A stretch of 64,000 bases of DNA from Cyanophora paradoxa CCMP329 (lineage: Eukaryota; Plantae; Glaucophyta). This document shows positions 23,273 to 64,000 of this stretch, piece after piece. Numbering within the stretch: position 1 is the stretch's first letter; every line of letters starts with the position of its first letter. The stretch spans positions 9,428 to 73,427 of the forward strand of contig QPMI01000125.1 of NCBI GenBank assembly GCA_004431415.1. The letters are read 5' to 3'. Both the position numbers and the translations under genes were made by a program. The notes beneath the pieces were generated by a model. That model was not told the DNA's origin. It saw only the letters and a list, made by a program, of their open reading frames with translations, and did no database searches.

Positions 23273-23309
23273 CTAGTAGGTACCGGTATTGACAGTGATG
23301 AGTCTCTAA

Positions 23310-27989: not shown

Positions 27990-28020
<31 letters not shown>

Positions 28021-36257: not shown

Positions 36258-36718
36258 CGTTCGCGCTGAGAGGACGTTCCACGATAGATGTATCGCGCTT
36301 TGGACAACGTCGCTTGCGCCGATCGTACGCGCTGGCGCCGCTCGAAGATGAGCGAGGCGCGGTTGGGTCCAACTGGCGCAGAACCGCTGGACGGCCTCCT
36401 ACGCAACGTTCCGGCGCGTTCGAGGCGCGTTCCGGGCTTTGGCGCGCGGACCCGGGTACAGTGCGATATCGAACACCCCGCCCTCGTGTGAAAGCAGACG
36501 TCCGGGCGTTCGTCGTTTCTCAGTGCCCGCTCCCTGATCCCAGAGAGCGGTGACAGCGGAAGCGGCGCCTTGCGCACCCGATCTCCAGGTGTTGAAGGCG
36601 ATTGCCTCTGAGGCTCAGCGACCGCGCGCAACATCTGATATCGAAAGCACGGTGCGATATGAACCCATGCGGCGCCGCGCCCGCGAAGTCTTACGCGCGC
36701 GCGCGGTCTTTTGCAGCG
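36258..36718. promoter_or_regulatory. Probable bidirectional promoter between SET1 and SBDS
   Basis: The two start codons diverge with 461 bp between them. No specific motif was identified. Confidence 0.55.
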
Positions 36719-45309: not shown

Positions 45310-45343
45310 CCGAGGCGAGCCGAGCCGGCTCGGCTCGGCTCGG
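45310..45343. repeat. 34-bp palindrome with one mismatched pair
   Basis: ccgaggcgagccgagcc|ggctcggctcggctcgg, centred at 45326/45327. Confidence 0.85.
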
Positions 45344-45360
45344 AAAAAAGGTCTATATAT

Positions 45361-45481
45361 GATATTTGATTCTCGATAATGGTCTTTTAAAAAGAGAATT
45401 TTCTAAAAATCTATACATACATATAAGATATTTGATTCTCGATAATGGTCTTTTAAAAAGAGAATTTTCTAAAAATCTATA
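45361..45481. repeat. Two identical 55-bp AT-rich direct repeats (period 66)
   Basis: gatatttgattctcgataatggtcttttaaaaagagaattttctaaaaatctata at 45361-45415 and 45427-45481. Confidence 0.95.
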
Positions 45482-45841
45482 TATATGAGGGCCATCAATG
45501 GGCCAAACGCGAAAAGTCAACTCCGAGAGCTCGAGACTCGGAAGTGACGCTTGGATTGCGGAGGTTCTTATAACCGCCGCAACAGCTGTGGGGGTACCCC
45601 CTCCGAGGCTGGCGATCGCGGCGATCACGACCCTGGCGATCGCGATTTTCTCCCGATCGCGACCCTTTTCGATCGCGATTTCGAGATCGGGGACATTAAT
45701 GCGATCGCGAGAAAGGAAAAATCGGAAAAGGCCGAAAAGTGCCGTTTTCACGCGTGAAATCGATCGAAAACGAGGGTTCGAATCCCGGGCCCGGATTTGG
45801 ACTTGGTCAGAATCTCGAGTCAAAATGGGAGAAAAATGTGA

Positions 45842-45925
45842 CCTGGGACTTGGGACTTGGGACTTGGGACTTGGGACTTGGGACTTGGGACTTGGGAAGA
45901 GTTGGAATCAGAGTCTGGACCCAAA
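45842..45925 (+). repeat. (GGGACTT)7 cassette 1
   Basis: cct-(gggactt)x7-gggaagagttggaatcagagtctggaccca. Confidence 0.95.
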
Positions 45926-45996
45926 AGCGGGGAAATTTTCGGACGGGGAGAAAAATGTCAGGCAATCTCTATTACGATTTTCCCTTTGAGTTGAAT

Positions 45997-46425
45997 ATGG
46001 CATTCGAGAGGTTGCGCGAGTTCTGGCGTTGGCACCTCACGGGACATGACATCCCCGACGTAACACCAGAGCCCAACACACAGGGCGTGCTTGAAGTCAT
46101 CCGTCAATATCCGCGTCGATTCAATGAATGGATTGAGTTCCACGCGACGAGCCGTTTCCAGAGCCTCCCCGAGGCCATACGCGAAAATTTCGTGAGGCTG
46201 GTGGGACCAGGCTACGACAACCCTAACAATCATAGACCACGCCCAGCTGGCGTGACACGCGAAGCTCGAGAAGACCGTAGACTTTTCCGCAGGGAATTGA
46301 GAGAGGATAGACGGAGGCTTTCAATGGGGCTCCCGCAGATTGTGAGGGGGTACAGCCCGGATTACGAGACTTACCAAGAATTGTACGGCTTCGAAAATCC
46401 CTTTGAGAGGGCACTACCAGGGTGA
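45997..46425 (+). CDS. Viral hypothetical protein (142 aa)
   Basis: MAFERLREFWRWHLTGHDIPD...FERALPG. The upstream extension in the ORF track is only the translated heptamer repeat. Confidence 0.7.
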   Translation: MAFERLREFWRWHLTGHDIPDVTPEPNTQGVLEVIRQYPRRFNEWIEFHATSRFQSLPEAIRENFVRLVGPGYDNPNNHRPRPAGVTREAREDRRLFRRELREDRRRLSMGLPQIVRGYSPDYETYQELYGFENPFERALPG

Positions 46426-46764
46426 GGGGCCAGGGGGGCCCCTGAGGGTGTACCCCCGGCCCGAGACTCGACCTTCGGCGGACGCACTCGGGCGATTTCC
46501 GTCAGGCCGGCTCCCTTTTTCTGCCTTCGGTCCAACGCTAAATTTGGCTTTTTTCAGGCCAGTTGGCAACGTTTTCCGTTGCGAACTAGACCGCGAAAAA
46601 AATCGCCCACAAAACCGCGGTCCGCCGCCATTTTGGCTCACTCTTGAAACGGGTTCGCCGCCTTCTCTCAGCCCAAGGAAACCCCGCCTCTCCGAATTTT
46701 CACAAGTCCGCCCTCACAGTCACCTCACGTTTTGCCTTTGCTGATTTCTTTTCCCTTTGCGCAG

Positions 46765-47832
46765 ATGTCGATTCCCGCTGAGCTTGCCGAGGACTTCGCC
46801 TTTGTCCAAGCAACGTGGGCTAACTCCGGTGGCACTCAAGGGGCTACCCCTGAGATGGAGCAGCGCGCCGACGCTCTGGGGTACATCTACAATTATGCCA
46901 TCTTACGCGCCACTGGCCCCGAAGTGCAACTTCTCCCCAAGTCCGCCTTCACGTCCAAGGCCAAGAAATCCAAGTCCAAGCAACCCAAGCCCGAGCCCCC
47001 CGTCGACGTGCCCCCGTCCCCGGCTGGGTCAAGACCGCCAACGGCTGGGGCGACCCCAAGCTTTTCGCCGAGTCTGCTGCCGAGACGCTCGCCTGGGCCT
47101 ACCCCCTCAAGTCTTCACGAATTACCCCCCTCCGTCATCGTCGTCATCTGCCCCTCAGCCCGTCGCCGAGCCCGCCCCGAGCCCGCCGATGACGCCAAGT
47201 CCGAGGCCTCTGACGTCGAGTCTGACATCAACGACTTCATCGACTTTGACGTGCCGATTCCATACGACTCTGAGTCGTCTTCTGACTCTGAAGGCGACAA
47301 CGAAAACCCGACTCGCAAGCGCCGCATTATCAAGACCAAGTCAATCGTCAAGAAGAAGTTCATGGAGACTACGTCATTCACCGACAACTCCGAGCGCGTC
47401 AAGGACCCCGCCAAGGCACACGAGAAGGACTTGAAGCTCGGCGCCGGCATTGCCCGTTCTCGCGTGACGTCACACTACAGCGAGCGCCTGACTCAGCACG
47501 TCAAGACCATTGAGAAGCGCGTCCTCTGCAACGAGCTCCGCAAGGAGTTGGAGCGCAAGCGGCGCCACGAGCGCCTTGTCCAGTACCAGATCAACAAGGC
47601 GCGGATCGCCGAGCGCAAGCAGAAGGAGGCGGCCGAGCTCAAGGCGCGCATCGAGGCTCAGCAGCAGCGCGAGGCAGAGGCGGCAGCGGCCTTGGCGGCG
47701 CAGCGCGAGCGCGAGCGGCAGGACTTGGTGCAGGCAGCGCAGTCCCTTCCCCGCATTCCCCTTAAGTCGGCGCCCGAGGGCCTCATTGAGTTGGTTTCCG
47801 ATGACGATGACTCTGACTTTGAGATGCTGTAA
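46765..47832 (+). CDS. Viral hypothetical protein with Pro-rich/acidic middle and C-terminal coiled coil
   Basis: Intron-less ORF of ~355 aa from MSIPAELAEDFAF..., with a coherent charged-helical C-terminus. Confidence 0.8.
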   Translation: MSIPAELAEDFAFVQATWANSGGTQGATPEMEQRADALGYIYNYAILRATGPEVQLLPKSAFTSKAKKSKSKQPKPEPPVDVPPSPAGSRPPTAGATPSFSPSLLPRRSPGPTPSSLHELPPSVIVVICPSARRRARPEPADDAKSEASDVESDINDFIDFDVPIPYDSESSSDSEGDNENPTRKRRIIKTKSIVKKKFMETTSFTDNSERVKDPAKAHEKDLKLGAGIARSRVTSHYSERLTQHVKTIEKRVLCNELRKELERKRRHERLVQYQINKARIAERKQKEAAELKARIEAQQQREAEAAAALAAQRERERQDLVQAAQSLPRIPLKSAPEGLIELVSDDDDSDFEML

Positions 47833-47903
47833 ATAGTATTGCGTCATTCCATTGTACATACTTGTAAAAATTGGCCGACTATTCAGTTACGACTTGGCGC
47901 GAT

Positions 47904-48022
47904 CCTGGGACTTGGGACTTGGGACTTGGGACTTGGGACTTGGGACTTGGGACTTGGGAAGAGTTAGACTCAGGGTCTGGGCCCAGAATCTCTCTGGATC
48001 TGAGAGTTTGCCGCGCCAAGTC
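47904..48022 (+). repeat. (GGGACTT)7 cassette 2
   Basis: cct-(gggactt)x7-gggaagagttagactcagggtctgggcccagaatctctctggatctgagagtttg. Confidence 0.95.
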
Positions 48023-48245
48023 CCTAACCACCGGGCAGACATGTAGAGGGGTACGGAAATCTGCATATGACGTTTCTGGTGACATTCCAGGTGAGATTTC
48101 AAGCGAGGTAGAGTCTGAACTGGTGTACGACTTGTAGCATGATACTGGACATGAAAGCTCACGAGAGTATGCAACCGAAAACGGATGTGAAGAGGGGTAG
48201 GAGTTTTCGTGTGAGATGTCGAGAGAAGGAGGGTACGAGATGGGA

Positions 48246-48292
48246 TACGAGTAAAAAAGACTACGAGTAAAAAAGACTACGAGTAAAAAAGA
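48246..48292 (+). repeat. 3 x 16-bp direct repeat TACGAGTAAAAAAGAC
   Basis: Read directly. A partial fourth copy lies at ~48309-48319. Confidence 0.9.
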
Positions 48293-48337
48293 GTATGAGG
48301 AGTGGTAGGAGTAAAAAAGTCGGTAGAAAAACTCACC

Positions 48338-48484
48338 TGACTTGTCTGACAAATTTCTGATCCTGGAGAAAGTCTGGGCCGGGACCTGGGTTTCAACTCT
48401 TCCCAAGTCCCAAGTCCCAAGTCCCAAGTCCCAAGTCCCAAGTCCCAAGTCCCAAGTCCCAAGTCCCAAGTCCCAAGTCCCAGG
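48338..48484 (-). repeat. (GGGACTT)11 cassette 3, inverted relative to cassette 2
   Basis: Reverse complement: cct-(gggactt)x11-gggaagagttgaaacccaggtcccggcccagactttctccaggatcagaaatttg. Confidence 0.95.
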
Positions 48485-48505
48485 TTTTTCTGAACCTAGG
48501 GCAAA

Positions 48506-48870
48506 ATGGCCCTGCTCCGGTGCACCGACTCGCAAGACGTCGCCTACAACGTCCTGGTCAACTCGGACGTACCCCGAGTGCCTTGGAGTTTCCCTGGAGA
48601 GTGGACAGGGACAGGGTGAGCAAGACGTTTGGAGGGCGCAAGCACTACCTCTCCCAGCTGATCCTCGGGAAGTCGCCACGTGGACGCTACGTGGAACACA
48701 TCAACGGCAACCCGCTGGACTACAGGAGGGAGAACCTGCGCTGGGCATCAATGTCGGAGATTCGCAAGAAGAGGAGGGGGTACGCCAATTTACAGGAGAA
48801 GAGCGAGGAGATTCGGGAGATGATGGAGGCGACACAGGTGCTAATGCAGCTTAGCCAGTCTAGACGCTAG
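48506..48870 (+). CDS. HNH-family endonuclease-like protein (one frameshift near the 5' end)
   Basis: YLSQLILGKSPRGRYVEHINGNPLDYRRENLRWASMSE resembles the phage HNH pattern VDHINGxxxDNRxxNLRW. The first conserved Asn is Tyr and the final His/Asn is missing, so it may be inactive. Confidence 0.75.
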
Positions 48871-49672
48871 TGGTGTGAATCTTGGTGTCGTACTCGCGAC
48901 CGACCGTTTCCCAGGCCACGTAAACTTCGGCTCCGGCGCCTGGCGCTGTCGAGTTGGTAGTCGCAGTCGTGTAGTCCGCCTCTGCCTCAATTAGTTCGGC
49001 CATGAGGGTAGAGCCCACGACCATTCCAGAGGTAGGCATTCCGGCGATGTTGTTGTACAATTTGAAAGTGAATTTCGTGAAGAGGAGCCGGGGCCAGACC
49101 TGGGTACGGGGATTCGAGGCGCCGTATGAATAATCGGTACCCGAGGCGCCGCCCGTGGTGGCATTCGTCATCATCTCCTTTGCGGTCATCTTCCAGAGGT
49201 TGTACATCTCAAAGGGAACGGCCTGCGTGGTCTTGTGTGTGGCATCGATGAGGGCGCCATCTAAATGCGTTTTGATGTTCGGATTCGCACCATTCCCGAA
49301 TTTGCGAGTGAGGGCGGTGTTAGCGGTGAACTTGAGTTCGAGCACGCGAATGGCGGGCCGATCAGGCACAGAGGGCTCTATCTTTTTCAGGAGGCCCGAG
49401 AGCCAGAGCGCCTCCGCCTCATCCGCGCTCACGCCCGAGTCGATGTCAAAGTACACGTACACGGAGCAGGAGGCGGGATTCTCGAAATCGTTGGAGGTGA
49501 CGCGCAACATGACGGGATTCTGGACCCTCACGGTGAGCGGGGTGGCGTAGTTTCCGTCCCACTCCACCTTGTCCGTCCCTGCGTTGGCCACGTTCCCAGC
49601 GTTGCCGTAGAAATCGGGGACGATCGAGCCGGCAGACACGGTCTTCACGATGGTGGCCGAGGTGGTCGGCAT
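48860..49672 (-). CDS. Viral beta-rich putative virion protein, paralog A (270 aa)
   Basis: Clean ORF that aligns in several blocks with the neighbouring gene. Confidence 0.8.
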   Translation of the reverse strand: MPTTSATIVKTVSAGSIVPDFYGNAGNVANAGTDKVEWDGNYATPLTVRVQNPVMLRVTSNDFENPASCSVYVYFDIDSGVSADEAEALWLSGLLKKIEPSVPDRPAIRVLELKFTANTALTRKFGNGANPNIKTHLDGALIDATHKTTQAVPFEMYNLWKMTAKEMMTNATTGGASGTDYSYGASNPRTQVWPRLLFTKFTFKLYNNIAGMPTSGMVVGSTLMAELIEAEADYTTATTNSTAPGAGAEVYVAWETVGREYDTKIHTTSV

Positions 49673-49695
49673 TTTGCGACCTCAAATGAGAAAGA

Positions 49696-50375
49696 TTATC
49701 CGTGAAAGAGGGTGATGTCGCCACCGATGTTCATGACGCGGGCCCCAGGCACAGAGTCAGCGTCGGTGCCGTACGCGTAGGAAATCGAGCACTCACGCAG
49801 CTCCGCGCAGAGGCTGGCGCCCGTGCTGAAGTGGGGCTGGTCGGCGGCGTAGGAGAGGGGGAAGACCTGGAACCTGAAAAAGGTGAAGGGGAAGCGGGGT
49901 AGAGTCGAGCCGCGTGGGTTGCCGCCCGTGTAGAGGGCCCCAGGGTCGCGGGACTTGGATTGAATTTCGTGAAGAGCACGTCGCCCTTGAGCGTACCCCT
50001 CATCTGGTAAGTTCCCGTACCCGGAAGATTCGAAGAACTGGGGTACCGGTTCACGGTGGGGCCGTACCCCGTCTCCCTGAACTTGACCTCGAGACAGCGC
50101 AAGACGTTGGCAGTGGCCGTGGCAGGTGCCACCTTTTTCACGAGTCCTGATTCGTGCAGCAGCTCGATAACCTCTGCGCTGAGGCTCAGAGGGTCGAAGA
50201 AGAGCTGGTAGGAATAAATCTTGGGCGTGGCGTAGGCGTTCTGAACGACCTGAATCACGACGGGATTCTGCAGAAAGACGTCGACGTAACTGCCGGAGGG
50301 TATGCGTGCGAAATCCTTGGTGTTGTTGCCAACGTCAAGTGAGCCGCTGAGGGTCTGGTACCAGTTGGAAGTCAT
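49696..50375 (-). CDS. Viral beta-rich putative virion protein, paralog B (frameshift at ~49898)
   Basis: Restoring one C in a C-run gives ...LYPRFPFTFFRFQVF...GASLCAELRECSISY...ITLFHG-stop, which matches paralog A. Confidence 0.78.
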
Positions 50376-50414
50376 TTACCCCGGGGCAGATATTTTTTCG
50401 GATCGTAGAGGAAA

Positions 50415-52555
50415 ATGCCCCGCTTCGTATTCGTGAAAAAGCAGGTGGTGCAGGCTCCGCAGTATGGCGTGGAGCCGATCTCGCTGACTGTGGGCAGGCC
50501 CCAGGTGCGATCGGGCTCCGTGCTCAACAACGGGAACAGTACGTACGGCTTTCAGCTGAACTGGGTCGCGGTCACCAACGCCGTCAAGTACAAGGTGTAC
50601 AGGGCGACCAGCATCAACGGCCCCTGGGATCTCGTGGCCACGGTGAATGCGCCAACCGTCACCTACACGGACTCTCCCTTTAGTTTGGGGGCCCAGCGAC
50701 TCTACCGCGTGGCGGCGGTTCGCGAACAGGGCAGCAGCAGCACGGGCTCTGATGGCAAAGCCCCGCCCACAACCTACGCACAGTCGCTTCTCTACACCCA
50801 CGAGGGTGCCATGAGCAATTACATTCTCTTCCAAGGCATAGGCGGCTTCAGCCCGCAGATCGAAGCCTACACCACGCTCACGACCGCCACGGCCCAGACC
50901 TACGGCGATTTTATTGCCGGGGGCGGCCCCGCGTCTTCGGGCTTCCCGAAACCCGCCATAGTCGTCACAATCAACTGGGTGGCCATGGAGGGCGCGGACT
51001 CGATTCGAATTTACAGGAACGGTACGCCAATCGGATTTGCGAGCAGTGCCCTGTCTACCTCGTACATTGACGATAGCACTGCTCTTACGTGGGGCACGGA
51101 ATACTCTTACCAGGTGGCCGGCATCGTGGGCGGTGTCGAATACGACAAGTCCGATCCGCTCCTGGTCTGGACTATGCCAAACGCCCCACGAACGTGACGG
51201 CATCAGCACCCAACGACCAGCAGCAGCCTGTCAGCCTCAGCTGGACTGCGTCCACGGGAGCGACGGGATACAAGATTTACAGAGACGGGGCCTACCTCAC
51301 AGACTCCGCGACCAACTCCTACAGCGACACGACCACCGTCTGGGGTACAGGGTACGAGTACCAGATCTCCGCGACGAACACGGGAGGGGAGGGGCCGAAG
51401 AGTATTGCGGCGTACGTCACCACGGACCCGGGGGCGCCCACTGGGCTCACTGCAACCCCCGCGGCGGGGGCAGCACAGCCTGTTGTGCTCGAGTGGTCGG
51501 TGCCGGTGACGGGCGTCACCGTCTCCTACAACATCTACAGGGGTGGCGTGTTCCTTGCCAGCGACACGAGCAGCCCCTTTTCGGACACAACGACCGTTTA
51601 CGGAACCACTTACACTTACACCATCAAGGGCGTCAACCAGATCGGCGAGGAAGGCCCTCAGTCCTCGTCTGCCAGTGCAACAACTGCAAACGCTCCTGTT
51701 TTGGGTACATTCTCCTACACCGGGGCCGACCAGACTTTCGTAGTACCAACGGGGACTGTGGCTGTGCGTGTCATCGTATGGGCGGCCGGGGGTGGAGGCG
51801 GAGAACGCGCAGGTACGGGGGTCCGTGGAGGCGCGGGTGCTTGCGTAGTTGGTACATTGGCTGTGTCCTCGGGGGAGACGCTCATCCTTGTTGTTGGATG
51901 CGGCGGCCCAAAGGGTGTATCGGGGACTGCCACTGCTACCGTCTACGGAGGTGGTGGAAGGGGCTGGAGCCATAGCGTCGATCCGGAGTACAAAAACGGC
52001 GCCGGTGGTGGTCGTTCTGCAATTCAGCGCGTTGCAGGGACCGACTTGGTTGTTGCAGGGGCCGGAGGTGGGGGTACATGTGATTCGAATGGCGGCGGGG
52101 GAGTAGGCGGGGGGTTGACCGGTGGTGCGGCTGGGTTGGTTGGAGTAACCGGAGAGATACCGGCTCAAGGAGGCACCCAAACCGCTGGCGGAGCCGGTGT
52201 TGTGGCCTCAGGGGCCAGGCCCAGCAACCCGGGAACTTTGCGCCAAGGTGGAGAGACTGGGCCTGATTCAAGCGGCTACAGGTTCGGTGGTGGTGGTGGT
52301 GGTGGTTACTTCGGTGGAGGCTCTGGGTCCAGCAGGAGCGGAGTGTCAGAGAACCCAATAGCAAGAATGTTTGGAGGTGGCGGTGGCTCGAGCTACATAG
52401 GAAACTTGACGGATGCTACGGTGTATCCTGGGTCCGGCCAGGTGGCAGGAAATAGCGGAGACGCTCACTACGCAGCAGGCATTGGTAGGGGCGGCAACGG
52501 TGGCTCGTCTTTCAGCGACGGTGGCAACGGTCGAATTGTGATACTCGCGGTGTAG
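50415..52555 (+). CDS. Fibronectin type III repeat + glycine-rich domain protein (ORFs 50415-51197 and 51089-52555 joined by a frameshift at ~51186)
   Basis: About four FN3 units (LSWTASTGATGYKIYRDG...YSDTTTVWGTGYEYQISATNTGGEGPKS), then FSYTGADQTFVVPTGTVAVRVIVWAAGGGGG...GGNGRIVI, a phage/virus-type glycine-rich domain. Confidence 0.88.
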
Positions 52556-52575
52556 TTATTCCTAGTTGTTCCAGA

Positions 52576-53634
52576 TCAGCTCGCCAGTGCCGCTACCTGG
52601 TCTTTGAGAGTTTGAACTTCTTGTGAAAGTTCCTGAATTGCCTTCAACGACAGGGAAATGAGCCTGTCGTAGTTTACCCCGAGAAATCCATCCGCGTTCT
52701 CGAAAACGAGACTCGGGAAGACGCCTTGGACTTCCTGTGCGATGAGACCGTAATCCGTTTTCGAACCCCCGAGGATGTGTTCTTCCAGGTGAACGACACG
52801 GGATTCAGCTGCAGCAGAAGAGGGAGAATGCCCGACATGCTCGCGACATTTTCTTTCAGGCGGCTATCGCTCGACGAGTTTGTCAGGTATCCTTGAGCAT
52901 CCGAATAAACGGCTCGGTTTCCATCGCCCGTGAGCGTCGAGACGATGAGCCGACCCGTGATGCCAACGCCGACGGTTCCGCACAGCAGTCGTTCGGTGCC
53001 GTTGTTTCTCAAGGATAGACCAGAGCTGACGCTTCCGCTATCAACGATTGAAGTGTTTGCTATGCTTAGGCCATTAGTAGGGCCTTCGATTGCCGAGGTA
53101 AATAGAGTACCTGTAACACCAACGCCAAGAGTCCCACAGAGGAGTCTATCGTTTTCGTTGTACTTTATAGCTACGCCTGAACCACCGCCATTTATGTACG
53201 GTGACGTTCCGGTAATTTGCAGCTTATCGTCCAATGTAACGATGCCCGCCAAGTTTGAAGCCCCGCTCACCCTAAGCCCCCCACCACGTTTGCTCCGCCT
53301 CCTTGCACATACAGAGCCGCATTCCCCTCCCCGTTCACAGTCCCATTAAAGGTCACCTGATTCGTGGTGTACCCGCTCCCGTCCCAGGCCCCGTTCGTGA
53401 CGGTGAGCCTCTGCGTCCTCACGCGCCCCGGCACGGCCGACCCGCCCTCCCGCGTGCGCATCTTGTCGCAGCGCAGCTCGCCGACGCGGACGAGGTCGGC
53501 CTCGGAAAAGGGGACGGCCGTGGCGTTGTAGGGGCCTCGGTGGCCTGGTTTCCGAGGGTGGTCTCCTTAATCGTGTGATCGCCCTTGTGATTCACGCTGG
53601 CAGCATAGGTAAATAGAGGGACAGCGACCGACAT
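52576..53634 (-). CDS. Fibre/spike protein with C-terminal peptidase S74 intramolecular chaperone (several frameshifts)
   Basis: SSDSRLKENVASMSGILPLLLQLNPVSFTWK...DYGLIAQEVQGVFPSLV...GVNYDRLISLSLKAIQELSQEVQTLK is the typical S74/ICA motif set. There are two internal repeats (ENDRLLCGTLGVGVTG / GTERLLCGTVGVGITG). Confidence 0.9.
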
Positions 53635-53658
53635 TTTTGGATTGCATCAGAAAATCGA

Positions 53659-56600
53659 TTACATAAGCAGCTTGCCGATCGCGGTCCAATGAATAAAAAG
53701 CTGGACAATTTGGGTGGGCGTGACCGTCATTCTGGGTTGGAATCTCACTTTAACTGTAAAGCCAGTGTGACTCACCGCCGTGACGTTGGCCCCGTAGAAA
53801 TCGACATCCGTGCTGCCGCCGGGATTGATGTCGAACGAGGGGGTTACGTTAATAACCGGCGTTGGGTTTGCTGGGGTCCCCAGTCCGCCTCCAGTGTCGT
53901 ACGCCTGTCCGAATGTAATGTTGAACGTCACCGTGTATGTTGAATTGATGTTAAACTCCGTGTACGCAGCGTAGGAGTGGAAGGACGTGCCGTGCGTTAT
54001 GTACGCATCCATGTTCACGTTTCTGTGCCCGTGGCTGGTGAGCGAGTACTCTGTGTGACTGTGCGTAGAGGGTGGGAAGGAAGTGGGTCGGTCGATGACA
54101 TTATCCCAGTACACATTGTGACTGTGTGTAGAGGGGGGAAGGTAAGTGGCTTGCCCGTTACGTTGTCCCAATCCACGGAGATGTTCGTCAAGTCCGGGGC
54201 CGTCCAGTCGCTGATCTGAGAGATGGTGTGCTGGTGGTCTGCGTGGGGATACGTACTCGGCTTCCCGTGATGCTATCCCACGCCCACGTTGTTGGTATCA
54301 CGGGTATCGTCGGCCTCCCGCTGAGATCTGCATACGCCCCCGTGTGTGCCACCGTCGCCAGCTGCGGCACGGCAACGCCCACGGTGCTCACGGCCTGGCT
54401 CGCCCCCGGCGCCATGTGCCACTCGTAGTTCTGCGATGCAAACACGGGCTGGCCTGGCTCGGGCGCCCAGTACTCGATGCCTTTGGCGATCTTCTTGGTG
54501 TATGGTGCTGCAGGCCTGTCAACCAATTTATCGACGTAGGCCTTGGGTACCAGCCAGTTTGCCTTGGGGCTCTGCGAATTGATCCCGTTGTCTATGAAGG
54601 CCCCGTAATTCCTGAAGGCCTCGGCCTCCCACCAATCCTGCATGCGGAAGGTCCCGGGAATCTCGAGGCGCGAGTTGGCGTCCGCCAGGCGGGCCACCTG
54701 CGCCCCTCCGTTCGACGAGACGCCCGAGTGACGGATGGCCGAGCCGAATTCGCGCCTTAGGGCTTCGATGTGATTGATCCTGTTGAGGCCCTCCTGGTAG
54801 ACGGCAATTAAGACGCGCTTCCGCCCCTTGGTCTCCTCCTTTATCATCTGCTTCAGGTCGCGCATAAGTCGACTCAGGGCGAGCGAAGTCGACCCGAAGC
54901 CCTCCTGCATTTTAACGGTGAGCTGGGAGAGGAAGAGCACGGTCGCGCGATCGATTTCGAGCAGGGTCTTCTGGTCCTTGGGGGTACGGTAATCGTTGAT
55001 GCTGTTGTCGAGCGCGCGAATGAAGGCCTGCAGCTCCTTCGGCTCCTTGATTTCGTTTAACCGCAGCTCCTGGGCCAAGAGCGAGGCCATTTCGCGCGCC
55101 TCCGAGGGGTCGTACACACCCAAAAATCCGGAGCCCAGCTCGCCCTCCAGCCGATTAATTCGGTTGCGCAGCTGGCTCGCCTCGTCGCCCCACGTCTCGA
55201 CGCCCCAGTCGTAGATCTGTTGCGAGAGCTCCGCGATGAACTGTATGGTGTCGGTCGCCCAGTCGACGGGGTACTTGAAAAAGTTCTTCACGATTTCTTC
55301 CGCGCTGCGCCCGTTGATGATATCCACGATCACCTGCGCGATGGCGCCCGCGAGGATGGACAGGCCAAGTCCGCCCACCGTGCCGATCCTCATTTTCGTG
55401 AGGGCGCTCAGGGCGGACGACATGCCCGTCTGAAGGCCAAAAGAGCCGACCGTCATGATCATCTGATCGCGGAACGTATCGAAGAACTCGGCCTCCCCTA
55501 TCTTGCCCTGCGAGAGCGCCTGGTAGGCCGAGAGCAGGCCGCCCGCCGTCGCCAGCCCAAGGCCGGCCGCCGCCGCGCCCGCCCGCCGCATGGCCCGCGA
55601 GCCCGTACCCCCCAGCCCGGCGCCCACCAAGTCGATGCCCGCCCCCTGAAATAAATCGGCTGCCCCGAAAGACATGCCGTCGTTGTTCGCCGTACCCATC
55701 GCGGAGAAGAGGGTCTCTGCGCTGAAGGCCTCCTTGGCCACCCCGGGCCGCCTGGCCCTCGGGCGCCCCAGGAAGGCGTCGCGCTGCTCTTTGGTGGTGA
55801 ATCGCTCGAGGTCGAAATCGGCAAGGGCGTCGGCGGTGGCGCGGTTCCAGTCGCCGTAGGGCATGAGGGCGTTGCGCAGAATAACGTCCGAGTCGCCCAT
55901 CACGCGCCTGTCGAGCGTCTGAAATACGCCCTCGGAGGGCAGGCGAGCCGTGCCCGGGCGCATTTCCTCTACGGAAACGTCGTCCCTTTCCGCGAGGGTG
56001 ATGTCGTCCGGGCTGGCCGAGCCCACGCCCGCGCCCTCGTCGGCGTAGGCCCTTCCCCTCCTTTTTAACAGTTGATTGGCCTCCCGTTTCAATGCTTGGT
56101 ACTCTGTCTCTACCTTGGTCTTTCTTGCCTCTTCCTCTGCCGCCTTGCGCTCTGCGATCTTCCGCCTCTGCTCTTCTATCTCGGCGTTGCGTCTCGCCGC
56201 GTTCTCCTTGGCTTGCTGCTTCCGCTCTTCGATCACCCTGTTTGCGTACTCCTTGTCCGCTTGGGCCTTTCTGTAGCGCTCCTCGATCTGACTCTTGGCC
56301 TCGTCTCCTCTCTTCCTTAGATCGCCCATGAATGCCGTCGTATCTATGTGAATCTTGTATTTGGCGGGTGGGTGCTCACGTTTGAAGGCCTCCAGATCGC
56401 GCACCATGGCATCGTACTGCGCGAGCCCCTCCGCTGGAATGATGGCTCTTCGCATTTCCCAAAATTTGCTCAGCTTGCCCACGTAATCGACCATGGAGAG
56501 GTACGCGCTCTGTGCGCCCGCGCTCACCGTTTTCGGATTGGCTCGCAGCTCTGCCAAAAACTCCCCCTTTTGTATCCGGTACAGTGACCATTCGAGGGCT

Positions 56601-58760
56601 CCCCGCCACAGGCTCGCTTCCGTCCGCAGTTCTCTGTGCATCTCCTCCACGTCGCCGTATGCTATCCAGATGGCATCGCTGATGGGCCTCTGAACAGCCT
56701 GACGCTCAAAGTTTTTCCACTTCTCATCGGCCATCTTTCTCCTCAGTTCTTCGGCGTCTTTCTGACCCCTTCCCGTCAGCTGATCCATAACGTAGCTAAA
56801 GTCGCGCATGTTCTCTTCCATGGCGCGGAGCCTGTCCCCCGATGCATTTCCTTCTTTCAGTCTTTTGAGCTCCGAGCGGTAAAAATCCATCTGCGCCCCC
56901 CTGAACGTCTCCAGTCGTCGCTTACGCTCCGCTACCTTCGGCTCCTCCAGCCGTGCAAATTCCTCGTCTGATGCAGTTTGCATTGCCTTCAGTCGTTCCT
57001 CTTCTGTCTTGGCAGCTGCCTCCTCGTCCGCCCTGCGCCGCTGCTCTAACGCGTCGAAGAGGGCCCTCTGATCCTCGAGCGTGAGGCCAATGAGCTCTTC
57101 CACCTGGTCGCTCCTACCCAGCCGCGCGAAGGGCAGCCTCTCGGCGGCCGGCCTTGGATCGGGCCTTGGCGTCGTCTGCGTCTCCATTGTGCCCCTTGGC
57201 ACAGCCGTCCCTATCCTCTGCAGCTCGGCCGTCAGCGTTTTCACTTGCTGCTCTAGGTTGAATCGTATGGTGGATGCGAGCCCCTCTGCCTTCTGCCTCT
57301 CCTGTTCTCGCAGTTCGAGCTGCCTTAAATCCTCCTTTGCTTTTCTGGCTTGCTCCTCCGCTGCCTTTCGCTCATCGTCCAGCATCTTTGTGCCCTCTTC
57401 GACCTCGTTTGCTATGTTGACCTTGTTTGCTATTTCCATGTCCAGTTTCTCCAGCTCGGTCCTTGCCTGCTCCTTTGCCTCCCTTATCGCGTTTTCCACG
57501 ATCCTATCGGCCTCTCTCTTCCGGATCTCGGCTTTCTCCTCGGCCTCCAGGGATTTCTCAATTCTATCGCTCGCCTCTTTCAAATCGTCCGCTATCTTTT
57601 CTCGGCCGCTGTCCTCATTTCGTTAAATTGCCGCTCCCTTGTCTTCAGCTCCTCTGCCAGTATTCTCACCTGCTCGTCTGAGTAAACGATCGTTTTGTTA
57701 TCTTTCTGCAGCTCTGCAATGTCCCTTTCGTACGCCTTCCGATCCCTGTAGTACTTTGCACCGCCTGCAATCAGGGCCGCGCCGAAGATTCCCGTTGTTG
57801 TACCAAGGATCGGCACGAGCGTACCCCCTCCGCCGCTCTCTCCGCCCGAGCCGCCGCCACCCGAGCCGCTGCTACCCCGCCCCCTCCACGGGCGTGCCAC
57901 TGGAGCCCCCTCCGCCCCCGTGCCTGTACCCCCACCCCGGTGCCTGTACCCCACCCCGGTGCCTGTACCCCCACCTCCCGTGCTTCCGCCGCCCGTACCC
58001 CCACCCGGAATCGCGCCCGGCACCTTGGGCCCGCCGATGATGTCGTCGTACAGGTGGCGGTGCGCCCAGTCCGTGATGTCGGCCTTCACATGCGGGTGCT
58101 TGACGAGGGCGTACCTCTCGTCGTGGAAGTGGTCCTTCAGCGCCCAGTTCTGCGTCTTCGCCCAGTCTGAGCGATCGGGGAGCACGTCGGGTGCCGTTGG
58201 GATGCGGCCCCCGCCCGTCGTCTCCGGCGTCTCGCCCGTCCTGTCGGCGCTCAGGGCGCGGATGTTCACCTTGAAGTGGTCGAACCACGCGAAAAACTCC
58301 TCCCTGTCGCGCCTGTACTGCTCGGGCTCCATGCTCGGCAGCGCCTGGCGGCTCCAGTAGATGTGGCGCAGGGGCCCGCGATGCGCTCGAGTGCGTTGTA
58401 CCCGGGCCTCACGTCCCCCTCTGCGCCCTTTAGAGTCAGTTTCACGAGGTTCAGGGTGGCGTCTTTCGCTGTAACGGAGTTTGCGATTTTCACGTCGGCC
58501 GCCCTCTTAATAATGTTCCAGTCCACGCCCGTCTCGGTCGTGACGCCCCAGAGCCCCTTGATAATTGCGGTGAGGTCACCGTAATCGTCCAAGGTACCGA
58601 CGGACGTCAGGAAATCGCTGTAGGTCGCGCCCTTGCGCAGCCTTATCTCGTCCGCGTAAATTCCCCTCACGCTCAGGCTCCCGTCTATCGCGAAGGCGCC
58701 GTTCAGCACCTCGTCCGGATTCGGGATGGCCATGCGCCAGGGGTCGTCGAGCATCGACAT
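53659..58760 (-). CDS. Very large (~1700 aa when rejoined) coiled-coil / fibre-like protein with tail-repeat and H-type-lectin-like C-terminus
   Basis: Abutting ORFs 58266-58760, 57592-58332, 54188-57583 and 53659-54171 can be linked by single-base indels. Features: long EKR-rich coiled coil, Gly/Ala hydrophobic segments, WDSITGKP / WDNVTGKP / WDNVIDRP..STHSH repeats, and a terminal VTF...PVINVT...VTAVSHTGFTV...IHWTAIG. Confidence 0.8.
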
Positions 58761-58784
58761 TTTATCCGCGAGAGAGAAAAATTA

Positions 58785-59259
58785 ACTAATGCTCCGCGTC
58801 CCACGTCCACTTCAGCTTGCCGCTCACCTCGCCCGTTGTCCAACGGCCCACGGGCACCTGCCAGAAAACGTCGGCGTAGGGGTAATCGGCCTGATAGTGA
58901 TCTGCTCGTCACGCAGCCAGCGGTAGGCCTCGGAGGCGTCGCGTATTTTCGGCTCCCAGTATTCCCCGCCCGTGCCGTTCGGCAGCGAGTACCCCTCCCT
59001 TGCTACCCGTACCCTGTAAACGTGCTCGCCCGTTAGCGTGTCTACCCCCTGTACTCGAATTCTACGATTAAGGCCAAGTCCTGCCATGCGCTCTCGCCGA
59101 GACGGATGTGACTGAGGCTGTGCAGCAGCCCGTATTTAATTGGACCAGAGGCGGTTACAAGATCGACTCTGTAAGTGAGGGGCGAGGGGTAGCCAGGCAC
59201 GCCCGTAAAGGTGCGCGTCTTGACGCCCGAGCCCTTTCGCGGAATATGATCAGGCGCAT
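58785..59259 (-). CDS. Viral hypothetical protein (frameshifted)
   Basis: ATG at 59259 with the shared upstream motif. Fragments GVKTRTFTGVPGYPSPLTYRVDLV... and VDTLTGEHVYRVRVAREGY... lie in adjacent frames. Confidence 0.6.
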
Positions 59260-59280
59260 TTAAGGGGGGCCTGCGAAAAT

Positions 59281-59730
59281 CTATTTCGCAAAGGCCCAGA
59301 GGCCGAAGTTCTTGACGATGAAGGCGTTGTTCTTCTTGGTGGCGCCCGTGATGTCGGTGAAGCGCACGCGCAGCTCCTGGAACTTGTCGTACGCGACGTA
59401 GTTCGGGCGCACGGCCATGGGCACCTCGAACCAGTAGAGGATGGTGTTCTCGAGGCCGTCGTGGCCCCACGTCGGGATCACGACCTTGTTGATGCACGTG
59501 TTGACGTTCGAGATGGTCGTGACGTTCAAGTCGGGCACGTCCATCAGCAGAACGTTGACGGTTTTCGCGGCGGTGGGGTCCGGAATCGCGGTCGTGTCCA
59601 GCTCCAGGTAGACGCCCTTGATCTGCAGCGTGTCGATGTCGGCGGGGATCTGGTTCAGCCTGAGGCGCCAGAAGCCCTCGGAATCCTGCGTCTCTCCGTT
59701 CGACTGGACGTAGAGGTTGACGCAGGACAT
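59281..59730 (-). CDS. Putative minor capsid / penton-like single jelly-roll protein (149 aa)
   Basis: N-terminal VNLYVQS...FWRLRL...IDTLQIKGVYLE and C-terminal FQELRVRFTDITG...FGLW follow the strand pattern I associate with polinton/PLV/virophage pentons. This is pattern recognition only. Confidence 0.55.
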   Translation of the reverse strand: MSCVNLYVQSNGETQDSEGFWRLRLNQIPADIDTLQIKGVYLELDTTAIPDPTAAKTVNVLLMDVPDLNVTTISNVNTCINKVVIPTWGHDGLENTILYWFEVPMAVRPNYVAYDKFQELRVRFTDITGATKKNNAFIVKNFGLWAFAK

Positions 59731-59752
59731 TATTTAGGAAGGGGCCTGAGAA

Positions 59753-59940
59753 ATTATGCCTTCCTCAGGCCGTTGAGGAGGTAGGGCCCACGAAGTAGTA
59801 GCCCGCGAACTGCGCGGCGAGGATCCGCACGAGGTAGTAGCGCGCGGGCGACATGTAGGCGACCGCGCCGAGGGTCAGCAGGCTGCCCAGGTAGCGGAAT
59901 CGCTGGTGATATCATCGAGGCTCGGGAGCATGGACGACAT
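59753..59940 (-). CDS. Small hydrophobic (membrane) viral protein, frameshifted
   Basis: MSSMLPSLDDI.. joined to RFRYLGSLLTLGAVAYMSPARYYLVRILAAQFAGYYFVGPYLLNGLRKA-stop. Confidence 0.55.
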
Positions 59941-59962
59941 TGTTAAGGGCCCATTCAGAAAT

Positions 59963-60317
59963 TTACTTGGGCATGAAGAAATTCCTGACGCGCTCTCCCT
60001 CCTCGTGCAGCGCCCACTGCAGCCGGTCGATGACGGCGGCCATCACGGGCGGGCTCGCGCGGGGTTCTTCGCGTACGCCCGGGCGTCCTCTGCCATCTGG
60101 GGTGGTACTGCTCGACGCGCTTGGCGTAGCTCGCGATGGCGCGGCGGGTGCACCGATCCAGGTCAGCCGCCATTTCCGCCGGTGCCTTCGGCTGCTGCTG
60201 CTTCTTTCGCGCGTAAGTCCTAAGAAGCCAAGGGTAGGCCGCGGTGCTGCTGCTGGAGTTGCTGGGCGCTGGAGCCTCTGCGCTGGGGGCTGGTGTCGCG
60301 GGAGTCTCCATTCCCAT
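59963..60317 (-). CDS. Viral hypothetical protein, frameshifted
   Basis: MGMETPATPAP...AIASYAKRVEQYHP.. followed by VMAAVIDRLQWALHEEGERVRNFFMPK-stop. Confidence 0.55.
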
Positions 60318-60322
60318 GTTCT

Positions 60323-60589
60323 CTAGAAAAAAACGGGTACCGGTTTGCGTCATCTGAATGTCGACGTGGTGCGGCCCTATGTTCTGCGTGCTCTCGCGCC
60401 TCTGCTGCTCCGGTGGGGGTTCGGGCTCGGGCTGTCCGCGGCGGACGACCCTAAGGGCCGCCGCCTTCAGGGCGCCCAGCACTGTGTTGGGGCCGACGCG
60501 CTCCGTGCCGCCCAGCAGCTCCGAGACCAGGAAGAGCGCGCCGCAGACGACGGTGATGATGTCCGAGTGGGTGCATTCCCCTGGAACAT
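60323..60589 (-). CDS. Small single-TM viral protein, frameshifted
   Basis: MFQ.. joined to SDIITVVCGALFLVSELLGGTERVGPNTVLGALKAAAL. The shared upstream motif is present. Confidence 0.55.
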
Positions 60590-60614
60590 TTTCGCGGGCC
60601 CGTCAGATTTATTA

Positions 60615-61630
60615 TCCGCTACCCTTCCCCTTCCGCGCCCCTTGCCTTTGCCGCGCCCTCGGCCCTGGCCCTCAGGTCGCCGATTTCCGCGGCCTGCGGC
60701 GCGAAGCGGGGATCGTCCGCCTGGCCGGCGTCCGCCTGGAAAATCGTGAAGAGGTACCCGTCCGTGTTGTTGTCGGTGTTGTTCGTGTTTCGCGCGTGCG
60801 ACCACTCTTTCAGTAAATCGCGCTCTGCTTGTCGGCAGCGTCTTTGAGAGTACTCCTGCAGCTTGCTCGCGTAATTTTCCTCTGGGATCAGCGACGCAAG
60901 GACGTGGGCGGATCTTTCCCCATGCCTATCTTCTCTTCCGTCAGCATGCGCTCGAGCTCTGCGATTTCCACCATCGTATCGATGCTCGGTTGAGGCCCTG
61001 CCTCTGCCTCTTCTGGTCTACGAGGCGCTGCCCGCCGCCGTGAATTTCGCGGACAGAATTTGGTGCAGCCGCTCGTACACCGTCGTGGTGCTCGGCTCCT
61101 TCTCCTTCAGCAGCACCACCCAGTCGTAATTCGCCCACAGCACCTGCAAATTCGATATGTGATCGATCGTCACCAGCACGTGGGCGTGCAGCGCGCCGTC
61201 CGTCGGCCCCACCTCCACGCCCCTTGCACGCGATTCCGATGATTGCGTTGCGTACGTGTCGTCCTTGTACTTGCCGTTCTCTTCTTCATATTGAAGCGTA
61301 TGAACTTGTAGAATTCTGCATCCGAGAGCACCTCTGCGAGGCTGTCGCGCAGCGCCGCCGCCTCGAATTCTCGCGCCTCTCCCAGGCGCTTGTGGGTGTT
61401 GAAGAGCACCAGTAGCGCGACTGGCGCGCCTGTCGTATGTCGTACCGCGTGCTTCCGTCGGGATTCTTTTTGTTGAGGATGAAGACCGACCGCCCCGTCT
61501 CGCTGATTTCCGTGATCACCTTCTCGAGCGCCTCCAGCCGTTTGCCTGCGCCGCCTGCAGTCCCGTTTCGCCTTCTCTATGTCTGCTTTACCTCTTGCGC
61601 GTCCGCGAAGGTTGCCATTAAATCTTCCAT
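60615..61630 (-). CDS. HUH-superfamily endonuclease, paralog 2 (multiple frameshifts; 3' end uncertain, 60810 or ~60615)
   Basis: Motif I-like SRY(L)VLFNTHK, motif II GVEVGPTDGALHAHVLVTIDH, motif III-like LIPEENYASKLQEY..K. Confidence 0.75.
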
Positions 61631-61681
61631 GCTCGGCGCCACGATTTTCGCCTTTCTGATTTTCGACTGCGCAGAGTTGGC

Positions 61682-62600
61682 TCGATGACGGACGATCCGA
61701 AGTCAGCGGCCGTATCCTTTGCCTTTTTCGTGGTCTTTGGTTCGGCCCGCCGAGCACGCTCTCGACCATGTGGTCGCGCGTCTGCTTGGAGACGGTGGCC
61801 GTGTCGCCCCTCTTTCGCCTCTGCAGCCCAAGATCACGAGCAGGCCCTTGTTGCCGAGCAGCGTGACGCACTTCTGCAGAGCCACGAGTTTCTGGGCGAC
61901 ACCGTGGGCACCTGCGCCGGCTTCTTGTCCTTGATGAGGGGGTACGGCTCCTGGCCCTTTTTCTTTCCTTGCCGTTTTGCTTGGCGCCCACGCGTTTGCC
62001 TTCTCTATGACCGCGACGTACTCTTCGTACACGCATCCTTCCTCGCCTGCGCTGCTCCCTCGCGGCGATTTTCTCTGGCGTGTTGGCCCCTTGGCGCTCG
62101 GCACGGGCGTGGCTCGTACATGAGGCGAGGCAGCGGTAGCAGATTGCGGATTTCTGCGCGCTCTGGTACGTGCGCGTATGGCGCGCAGTCGCTCCTCGGG
62201 GAGTTTATCGTACTCGATTTCGCTGTGGATGCTCCAGAGGGTCGCGGCTCGTGGTATGATTTCATCGAGCAGCATTGGAGCATCTTGAACTTCTTTTCGG
62301 TGCCCGAAGCTTGATGTAATCGCATATGCCTCTTCTGCTGCTGGACATATGCCGTCCTCGCCCTGAACCAGCACGTATCGCTTCGGAATCTCAACGACGG
62401 GCGTCTCGAGCTCGTCCACCCGGTATGCGGCGCGTTTCCTTGCCTTCCCTTTCCCTTCCCCTTGCCTTGCCCTCCGCTTAGGCTCCGGCTCCTCTCTCTC
62501 CTCCTCTTTCCTCCGACTCGGGACGGGGACGTGGGCTCCTCTTCCTCTGACTCGCTCGAGCTCTCTGGCTTCTTCTTGCGGCCTCGGGCTTCGGAGGCAT
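61682..62600 (-). CDS. Viral hypothetical protein with basic/acidic N-terminus (frameshifted)
   Basis: ATG at 62600 with the shared upstream motif. Reads MPPKP(R)GRKKKPESSSESEEEE...AAYRVDELETPVVEIPKRYVLV. Confidence 0.6.
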
Positions 62601-62631
62601 TTATTGGACACGAGAAAAATTTACACGAGCT

Positions 62632-63449
62632 TTACAGCGCCCGTCTCGAGGGCTCTACCGTCTTCGTAATGTACAGCTGCAGCAGATCCTTAAGGTTGCT
62701 CTGCGGCAGCATTTTACGTCTACGTGCATCTGCCTGGCGGTTTCTCGCTTCCTGTAGCCGTCTCCTTGCCCGTCCACTGCATGCCGAGGGCGTCCTTTCT
62801 CCGTATCGGCCGCACCGCGTCTTCTGGTACTCCTCCCGAACAGTCGTCCTTGTAGAAATTCGGCAGGCCGCCCTGCCCCTCCGTTTGCATGAACTTGATG
62901 AGGAAATCCGACGCCTTCTTGCCGTCGAATTGCACGCGCGAGTAGTGCACCAGCGTGAGCAGGATGTGCGCGTGGAGCCGCCCCGACCGCGGCCCGTACT
63001 CGATGCCGATGTTCGCGTTGCCCTTCTCCACGTGCGTGTCGTACTGGTCGGACTTGAAATCGAAGCCTTGGGGTTCGCCTTGTCGGGGTACACCCCATCT
63101 TTATGCACCGCGCCAGCTGCCTGTCGTCGTAGAAGAGGGCCTCCAGCCCCTGTGAAACGCGTCCTGCACCTTGGAGCCCTCTCCCCTGCTCCGCGGCTTG
63201 TAGTTGGTCTGGATGGTGATCATGAAATTCGACTCGCGCTGCGGCCGATCCTCCCCGTTCAGTTCCTCACGGGCGCCGCGTCAGCACCTTCTGGAACCAC
63301 GTCTTGTCGGGCGCCAGCACCTTGTCGTTGATGTTGCCCACCACGATGTGCGTCTCTACCGGGAGCGGCCGGAGGCGTCCATGCGGAGGTGAGGGTTCGG
63401 TGCCCGGCTTGCCTGTTTGCTGCCACGCCCTCGCGATGAGGTTGAGCAT
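62632..63449 (-). CDS. HUH-superfamily endonuclease, paralog 1 (multiple frameshifts)
   Basis: Motif I RESNFMITIQTN (~63205-63240), motif II GIEYGPRSGRLHAHILLTLVH, motif III LPQSNLKDLLQLYITK (YxxK). Confidence 0.82.
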
Positions 63450-63519
63450 GTCAGACCAAGGCCTAGAAAATTTCCGAGGCTGGGGTGAGCTTCCACGTGG
63501 GGCCCCGGGTACGTCCGCA

Positions 63520-63562
63520 CCTCACCTGAGCATCACCTGAGCCTCACATGAATCACCTGAGC
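63520..63562. promoter_or_regulatory. Four TCAC(C/A)TGA boxes in a divergent intergenic region
   Basis: cctcacctgagcatcacctgagcctcacatgaatcacctgagc lies between the HUH gene (-) and the Zn-ribbon gene (+). The regulatory role is inferred. Confidence 0.45.
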
Positions 63563-63678
63563 AACGCCTTCTGCAACAAGTGCTTCCTCACTTGCAAGTG
63601 GGACCCACTCTCCTCTGAGAAGCCAACCTGTTGGTTCTGCAGGGGAATAGCTCAGCTGCAGTACGAGGACTCAGAGGA

Positions 63679-64000
63679 ATGGCAGACTCTAACGAAATCG
63701 ATCTCCTCCTCCGAAACTTCGAGCAGATCCAGCGCTACGGCGCCATCCTTCACGACGAGGGGGACCCAGACTCGACACTCCGGCACCGTACCCGCGCGCC
63801 GCCGCCGCCATCGCCAACTCCTACCTCGGGCCGGAGAGCGCCCCCGCAAGCGCAACGCCGCACCCAAGGCCCCCAAGGCGAAGCCGCTGTCCCCTGCGGA
63901 AATTGCAGCTCTACCGCCCTCGTTGGTGTTCACCTGGATGGGGATCTGGTTTGCCAAGGCTGCGGTCTGGTCCTGGATCTTTATTATCCGGACCATCAAC
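63679..64000 (+). CDS. TFIIB-type zinc-ribbon protein, candidate VLTF3-like late transcription factor (partial, frameshifted)
   Basis: MADSNEIDLLLRNFEQIQRYG..., then in a shifted frame CGNCSSTALVGVHLDGDLVCQGCGLVLD (63895-63978). Not listed in the ORF track. Confidence 0.65.
   Translation, partial: MADSNEIDLLLRNFEQIQRYGAILHDEGDPDSTLRHRTRAPPPPSPTPTSGRRAPPQAQRRTQGPQGEAAVPCGNCSSTALVGVHLDGDLVCQGCGLVLDLYYPDHQ

Follow-up and report, generated by a model that had tools for sequence, protein, structure and literature searches.

A many-copy endogenous virus of Cyanophora paradoxa with mriyavirus-type HUH endonucleases, VLTF3 and a fixed left end at TA tracts

Results

A virus-like element beside intron-containing host genes

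The 64,000-nt stretch of the Cyanophora paradoxa CCMP329 assembly analyzed here (contig QPMI01000125.1, positions 9,428 to 73,427; "the window") carries host genes on its left and, close to position 45478, the left end of a virus-like element that extends for at least 18.5 kb to the window's right edge. The visible 18.5 kb is gene-dense, shows no sign of introns and includes two genes for HUH endonucleases and the 5' part of a gene for the late transcription factor VLTF3, together with an HNH endonuclease and predicted fibre and surface proteins (Table 1). An initial annotation, made from the sequence alone, had described intron-containing host genes followed by packed open reading frames (ORFs) of an integrated virus. 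The host introns were borne out by an HMG box split in register between 41461–41538 and 41698–41787, and a Pfam scan also identified an exon of an ABC-2 transporter in the left host DNA. Gene spans occupy 88% of the element and 95% from 48.5 kb onward, in keeping with the packing described, but the first 3 kb contains gaps and heptamer arrays, many genes are frameshifted, and several of the ORFs are pieces of such genes. Pfam matches confirmed the annotated HNH, FN3/glycine-rich and S74 proteins (E-values in Table 1) and the zinc ribbon.

Two HUH endonucleases of the mriyavirus family

Both HUH endonucleases of the initial annotation were upheld. The short protein contains motifs I, II and III. 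The long protein, in two consecutive pieces, scored 38.7 and 7.8 bits on the HUH family profile, where reversed controls did not exceed 1.3 bits, and retains motif II and the motif-III tyrosine, which is followed by arginine where the short protein has lysine. A profile search of 1.84 billion proteins returned 24 proteins, 17 of them not host copies, with motifs I–III conserved. All 10 IMG/VR loci reached by the HUH alignment carry gamadvirus-type conserved genes and five have a complete short and long pair; the single IMG/VR record open to a search over its full length has a gene for an NCLDV-type capsid protein. By motif and profile, both genes are assigned to the mriyavirus HUH family, as a short and long pair like that of gamadviruses.

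A fold model of an environmental HUH relative (59% identical; pLDDT 71) gave one strong match in BFVD (E 2e-13, unnamed). Its best natural match in the PDB was SIRV1 ORF119 (2X3G), with IS200/IS605 transposases close behind; 2X3G is also the match reported for the mriyavirus HUH (Yutin et al., 10.1101/2024.02.29.582850; here and below, published sources are cited for the part of each that was accessible). A PDB sequence search gave no match for HUH, a phage collection gave none for HUH or VLTF3, and direct pattern scans of IMG/VR and JGI metagenomes returned no close relatives. In an HUH tree that omitted proteins of less than 200 aa from the loci, the element and two environmental proteins formed a group (96/91) that lies outside the clades of gamadviruses. 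These two proteins (P0042 and P0043, from JGI and Logan contigs) are intact, and their grouping with the algal element argues that free relatives or other hosts exist.

VLTF3 and placement of the lineage

The zinc ribbon at the right edge of the window is of the TFIIB type (Pfam E 5.7e-5) and is identified as the N terminus of VLTF3; full copies (276 aa) match Pox_VLTF3 with an E-value of 8.9e-25. The protein shares 30–41% identity with the homologs collected, gamadvirus-type loci ranking first. In the VLTF3 tree the element lies between gamadvirus-type and giant-virus sequences, and a position inside the gamadvirus crown was rejected by the approximately unbiased (AU) test (p 0.013 and 0.002 under LG+G4, with long branches in play). 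A quick tree omitted L001–L011, duplicates and proteins of less than 250 aa; the AU-test tree held 14 gamadvirus-type and 10 giant-virus sequences picked by hand, the two labels being assigned from contig size, GC and gene content. Both markers place the lineage outside the sampled gamadviruses, which agrees with the new lineage that had been put forward as a possibility. The row nearest by path to the host VLTF3 in the AU-test tree is L015:3770–10666, a deep-branching gamadvirus-like contig on which genes for the major capsid protein (MCP), a RuvC-like protein, an ATPase and VLTF3 all run in one direction, in a different gene order.

Many recent copies in the host genome

The C. paradoxa proteome contains 11–15 near-identical copies of the genes tested; the species is named by the database accessions of these proteins and is also the source of the exact matches to the window's own proteins. 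A search with a fragment of the short HUH returned 7 proteins from 11 candidates, all from C. paradoxa and on 7 contigs, and four further host models from the profile search bring the HUH models to 11 differently named contigs. VLTF3 has 14 host members in three clusters, a 270-aa protein and its paralog form a 15-member cluster, and a 149-aa penton candidate has 3 copies. Identity between copies is mostly 96–100%; for the 270-aa protein, 10 of the 12 copies compared are 97.6–100% identical, one with an open frame is 89.6% identical and one spliced model is 74% identical. By gene number, HUH adjoins VLTF3 on two contigs (g2055/g2056 and g753/g754) and VLTF3 stands five genes away from the penton candidate on a third, so this linkage recurs across contigs. 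The window therefore holds one copy of a many-copy endogenous virus family whose copies are recent, which the initial annotation had missed, along with the family's fixed end. A phage origin was rejected because VLTF3 is present and the copies sit in a eukaryote genome.

The short HUH gene of this copy contains about 10 frame changes in 0.8 kb, with in-frame blocks mostly 89–100% identical to other copies. Because these blocks are so similar and copies of VLTF3 and the 270-aa protein are intact elsewhere, long-read indel errors fit better than decay, and ancient decay of this copy is unlikely.

A fixed left end at TA tracts

Short-read contigs from four of 24 listed runs (the DNA runs X1, X2 and X7, and X15) were aligned to positions 43500–45830 of the window. 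The flank at 44396–45390 is a single 995-nt contig at single-copy depth (74 in X1, 77 in X2, 28 in X7), and a further contig covers 45361–45456, making the host flank continuous to 45456. At the left end the contig depth steps up about 50-fold, to 4005 vs. 74 in X1 and 3341 vs. 77 in X2; the ratio suggests some 40–55 ends, a depth measure that is distinct from a copy count and may include both ends or free DNA. Loose ends before 45477–45479 were present in at least 11 (X1), at least 8 (X2), at least 8 (X7) and at least 1 (X15) contigs, with an agreement of 0.45–0.6. These contigs join the same viral end to unlike flanks at a TA run, and in all 28 loose-end contigs among those listed the viral ends fall within 3 nt of each other. 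The joined flanks are 194 to at least 255 nt long and come from independent short-read assemblies of 2019 and 2024. The viral block is thus real and integrated at many sites, always by the same left end and at a run of TA.

The TA tract at the junction seems to be partly host-derived, since the flank consensus ending at 45478 ends in ATA; the TA tract of the host repeat units beside the junction has the same position as that of the viral end. In X2 and X7, two short single-copy fragments of the viral end, of 31 and 63 nt, run into TA tracts, a pattern compatible with a fixed start and a variable stop. The start at 45310 given initially has to be moved to 45478–45488, because 45310–45477 is single- or two-copy host DNA. 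A strong hairpin (−26 kcal/mol) at 45305–45343, which lies in host DNA some 135 bp outside the viral end, is likely what had been taken for a terminus.

Relationship to Mriyaviricetes

The element is likely a member or a neighbor of the class Mriyaviricetes, as judged from its HUH pair, with motifs I–III in the short protein, and VLTF3. Among the features of the family Gamadviridae, it has the duplicated HUH (short and long), and its marker genes fall outside the gamadvirus clade. The mriyavirus-like integrated virus of the initial annotation accordingly stands in its HUH, VLTF3 and integration, while class membership reaches beyond the evidence of the visible half, because membership rests on the capsid protein and ATPase, both beyond the window, and because HUH and VLTF3 also occur in some groups of the size of polinton-like viruses (PLVs). 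Genomes of the class measure 35–45 kb; the element has at least 18.5 kb. No profile or BLAST match to VLTF2, RuvC, an SF2/SF3 helicase, the PD-(D/E)XK nuclease or Mriya_48 was found in the visible 18.5 kb, nor any match to an A32-like packaging ATPase. A six-frame Pfam search of the same 18.5 kb, three frames near the left end excepted, yielded no pPolB, primase-helicase, DNA polymerase or RNA polymerase and no integrase, rve or tyrosine recombinase; the signs of an ordinary polinton named initially, pPolB and an rve integrase, are thus absent from this part.

Gamadviridae (endemic viruses of Pleurochrysis sp., NDDV and Phaglo-G; Yutin et al. 2024) share with the element the HUH family, the order of a short HUH and, directly after it, a long protein that ends in an HUH domain, transcription of VLTF3 in the opposite direction and the lack of a visible polymerase. 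They differ in the length of the long HUH (1,750–1,890 aa vs. about 660 aa) and in gene order, and their other conserved families are unmatched in the 18.5 kb. In the gamadvirus order an ATPase gene stands immediately behind VLTF3, and the MCP gene is no more than about 10 kb away.

Other genes and features

Table 1. Features at the left end of the element and in the adjoining host DNA (window positions)
Feature	Position	Strand	Remarks
Host HMG-box gene, two box exons and intron	41461..41787	+	HMG_box positions 23-48 / 49-68 in register, E 5e-4 / 0.02; flank, non-viral
Host flank	44396..45477		closes with two AT-rich units of 66-bp period, a TA tract before each (45361, 45427)
Element left end	45478..45488		(TA)4 then TGA; crossover somewhere within the tract
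156-aa ORF	45955..46425	+	no family
355-aa ORF	46765..47832	+	acidic and coiled-coil stretches, no family; gene model in host proteome
Heptamer arrays of 7 and 11 units, mutually inverted, on either side of a non-coding spacer	47906..48482		candidate HUH-binding iterons or origin
HNH endonuclease, frameshift near start	48506..48870	+	PF13392 (HNH_3) E 2.7e-7; PHROG HNH families
270-aa beta-rich protein	48860..49672	-	host cluster includes paralog
Frameshifted paralog of 270-aa protein	49699..50375	-	34-41% identity in blocks
FN3-repeat and glycine-rich protein	50415..52555	+	PF00041 (fn3) E 1.2e-7, PF12810 E 1.5e-9
Fibre with C-terminal S74 chaperone domain, frameshifted	52576..53634	-	PF13884 in two consecutive pieces, E 5.8e-6 / 4.3e-4
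Probable single gene of ~1,700 aa in several frames	53659..58760	-	1,083-aa open core; frames joined by eye
87-aa ORF	58824..59087	-	no family
149-aa candidate minor capsid (penton) protein	59281..59730	-	gamadvirus minor-capsid profile 4.6 bits
Three small frameshifted ORFs	59757..60589	-	two with hydrophobic segments; no Pfam match
Long HUH gene, ~660 aa, frameshifted	60619..62600	-	unrelated N-terminus, C-terminal HUH domain
Short HUH endonuclease, mriyavirus family	62621..63449	-	motifs I, II, III; ~10 frame changes
VLTF3 5' part, cut by window end	63679..64000	+	full copies 276 aa

Several of the remaining genes are candidates for virion components. The FN3 and glycine-rich frames probably belong to the same gene, frameshifted near 51190, and its product is predicted to be a surface or attachment protein. 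The frames at 53659–58760 are likewise probably a single gene, the product of which has a helical body with a coiled coil, three repeats like those of tail fibres and an H-lectin-like domain at its C terminus; the H_lectin match is under the cut-off (E 0.006), and the repeats were seen by eye, without a Pfam match. The 270-aa protein is possibly a jelly-roll virion protein, a lead with Atlas scores below 0.9; its single-sequence fold was of low confidence (pLDDT 29). For the penton-like protein of the initial annotation the evidence is weak: 2 of 1000 shuffles reach its minor-capsid profile score, Atlas gave jelly-roll-like leads below 0.9, and hhalign of full-length profiles gave no match. 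A third heptamer array lies upstream of the 156-aa ORF, and the arrays may be HUH-binding iterons or an origin.

A T-tract stands 10–25 nt upstream of many viral starts (45955–63449), in AAAATG or TAAATG contexts, and is a candidate viral promoter; it was counted at 12 of 16 starts vs. 34 of 367 other ATGs, a comparison that is not a fair test since the pattern was picked after inspection. In the host DNA, the 3' part of the HMG gene is repeated as an exact 1,022-bp tandem duplication (42382–44425), backed in the short reads by a 1,022-nt contig at 1.7–2.8 times the flank depth with a loop at 44425. A piece of 33–35 nt at 44631–44663 reaches a depth of up to 2,800 within the single-copy flank and is part of another high-copy repeat. 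Repeats of 50–220 bp with 90–100% identity, direct and inverted, occur at 4350–4941, 18460–19771, 22650–23361 and 25749–26939 and are probably remnants of host transposons. The host stretch at 27500–38500 has a GC content of 73–81% and long low-complexity frames, with no Pfam match in the frames scanned.

Discussion

The probable explanation of these data is an endogenous C. paradoxa virus present in many copies, one of which is visible here over its left 18.5 kb. This virus has two mriyavirus-type HUH endonucleases and VLTF3, likely stands in or near Mriyaviricetes, and its joins to TA tracts are likely made by an enzyme, its own HUH being the leading candidate. A number of observations weigh against this explanation. 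The visible 18.5 kb contains no MCP, ATPase, VLTF2, helicase or RuvC, and the right half, where an integrase gene may sit, lies beyond the window. Gamadvirus family profiles from 10 loci match only HUH and VLTF3 in the window, apart from the weak minor-capsid score, and a search for host MCPs returned 7 non-host proteins and no host copy among the best 7,992 candidates scored. The PDB fold matches of the HUH relative are weak, at E 0.04 and at a Z of 6.1 that unrelated folds equal, and the HUH and VLTF3 trees held no reference from Yaraviridae or Zoravirus. Zoravirus, VC218 and Zephyrvirus PLVs also carry HUH or VLTF3, often with rve (10.64898/2026.06.19.733378). C. paradoxa itself has at least 366 PLV-type MCP matches (PMC10120064), and by our reading of the columns 85 of its 156 PLVs carry rve, 40 HNH_3 and 37 S74, with tyrosine recombinase in none; one of them shares the repeat and H-lectin fibre type of the element (PMC12220804).

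The same virus might have been inserted by an rve integrase, encoded beyond the window or supplied by host PLVs, or it might be a Zoravirus- or VC218-like mosaic of a PLV-type capsid with HUH and VLTF3; we consider this doubtful. The element starts with TG after the TA run, and one short end piece has CA as its last letters, ahead of a TA run. Insertions by rve integrases typically have TG...CA ends, but the two-letter match is weak, and the 63-nt piece lacks a CA end in the window sequence. HNH, S74 and H-lectin fibre types are common to the element and the host PLVs, in which rve is frequent, and Zoravirus and VC218 combine HUH with rve (10.64898/2026.06.19.733378). Against this stand the lack of an integrase in the visible part, the short and long HUH pair, which is described for gamadviruses, and a Mriyaviricetes MCP branch reported from a glaucophyte (10.1101/2025.04.19.649669). 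Passive capture, in which host repair would seal linear viral genomes with defined ends into breaks where TA tracts are fragile, without any viral enzyme, is quite improbable. Accidental insertion has been suggested for Nucleocytoviricota regions without mobility genes (10.1101/2025.04.19.649669), mriyaviruses are said to be without integration genes (10.64898/2026.06.19.733378), and the host unit beside the junction resembles the viral end over about 9 nt, a possible microhomology. However, the near-identical ends of the 28 loose-end contigs imply little resection, the copy number is high, and complete genomes of the yaravirus group are circular or terminally redundant (10.1101/2024.02.29.582850) and would therefore offer no fixed end to capture. 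Among the contigs listed, none bridges the junction of this copy with 31 nt on each side, so integration, observed for the family, is only likely at this site; the window is also rich in indel errors. A chimeric assembly of free virus and host DNA, which the initial annotation had named as the case to guard against, is nevertheless highly improbable, as the same end occurs on many other flanks in independent short-read assemblies, the host flank is continuous almost to the junction, and copies lie on many differently named contigs.

For the probable reading, a virus in or near Mriyaviricetes with enzyme-made joins, a life cycle can be outlined from the description of the family. The virus would replicate in the nucleus with the host polymerase, initiation would occur by HUH nicking and rolling circle, VLTF3 would aid late transcription, and a double-jelly-roll particle would bear the fibre and FN3 proteins. 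Rolling-circle replication by the mriyavirus HUH is a prediction in the literature covered. To enter the chromosome, the HUH pair may nick the viral end and pass the strand on to (TA)n DNA of the host, in the manner of Y1 and Rep transposases. Insertion by the virus's own HUH is the leading mechanism, held tentatively; an rve or recombinase of its own, encoded beyond the window, is possible at slightly lower probability, whereas host repair is unlikely and the rve of co-resident PLVs acting in trans more unlikely still. Giant-virus-like insertions in C. paradoxa are methylated (PMC12344493), and the copies are likely silenced. A bolder proposal, that this is a deep new mriyavirus lineage spreading like a transposon, with the duplicated HUH as its integrase at (TA)n and dozens of recent, partly intact copies, is speculative and rather unlikely as a whole.

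Known HUH transposons (Helitrons, Replitrons, IS200/IS605 and IS91) resemble the element in having an HUH enzyme and short, often AT-rich targets, and the IS200/IS605 transposases have a weak fold likeness to the HUH relative; unlike the element, they carry no virion genes and no VLTF3, and the element's HUH is of the mriyavirus family. Helitrons and Replitrons use HUH as transposase, Helitrons insert between A and T, and Replitrons were not found in glaucophytes (accessible text of PMC10288648). Some mriyaviruses are endogenous, and HUH or VLTF3 is present in related PLV groups: HUH is found in about half of Zoravirus (VC102) and in 28% of VC218, and VLTF3 in about 30% of two Zephyrvirus clusters (10.64898/2026.06.19.733378). 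The Zoravirus, VC218, VC134 and Zephyrvirus groups are 20–30 kb in size and mostly have rve or a tyrosine recombinase; the accessible text describes no HUH pair together with VLTF3 in them, and the element has 18.5 kb without MCP or ATPase. The PLVs of C. paradoxa (PMC10120064, Table S4; PMC12220804, Table S6) share with the element the host, a high copy number, HNH, S74 and the H-lectin fibre; their defining feature is an MCP of the PLV type, many also carry rve and pPolB, and HUH and VLTF3 are not tabulated in the accessible tables.

The viral-like scaffold Phaglo-G, from the assembly of an alga, has short tandem repeats on its flanks (10.1101/2022.07.28.501842), and Mriyaviricetes-related regions are embedded in a Glaucocystophyceae assembly (10.1101/2025.04.19.649669, Fig. 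5f). The latter come from the same host class and viral class and, compared by description only, are probably the same family; the accessible text suggests accidental insertion and describes neither termini nor a target site, with no figure for copy number and no analysis of HUH. No termini, TA target or HUH-based insertion was described for any mriyavirus in the literature searched, which included few subscription papers and preprints without their supplements. The supplement text of Yutin et al. does not mention the genus Cyanophora, and a term search of the accessible text of PMC5294986 and 10.64898/2026.10.13.758929 gave no mention of glaucophytes. Mriyavirus-related insertions in a glaucophyte are thus already in print, which limits the surprise, and the new part is a family of high copy number that has a fixed end, is targeted to TA and shows no integrase in its visible half.

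Mriyaviruses, known almost only from metagenomes, are proposed to be the closest small relatives of giant-virus ancestors. With the family described here they gain a host among the glaucophytes and a lineage that falls outside the gamadviruses sampled. If insertion by HUH is true, the virus would be a double-stranded DNA relative of giant viruses with HUH chemistry as its means of integration. With many recent copies and a precise end in an axenically culturable alga, both the replication of mriyaviruses and their entry into chromosomes become testable.

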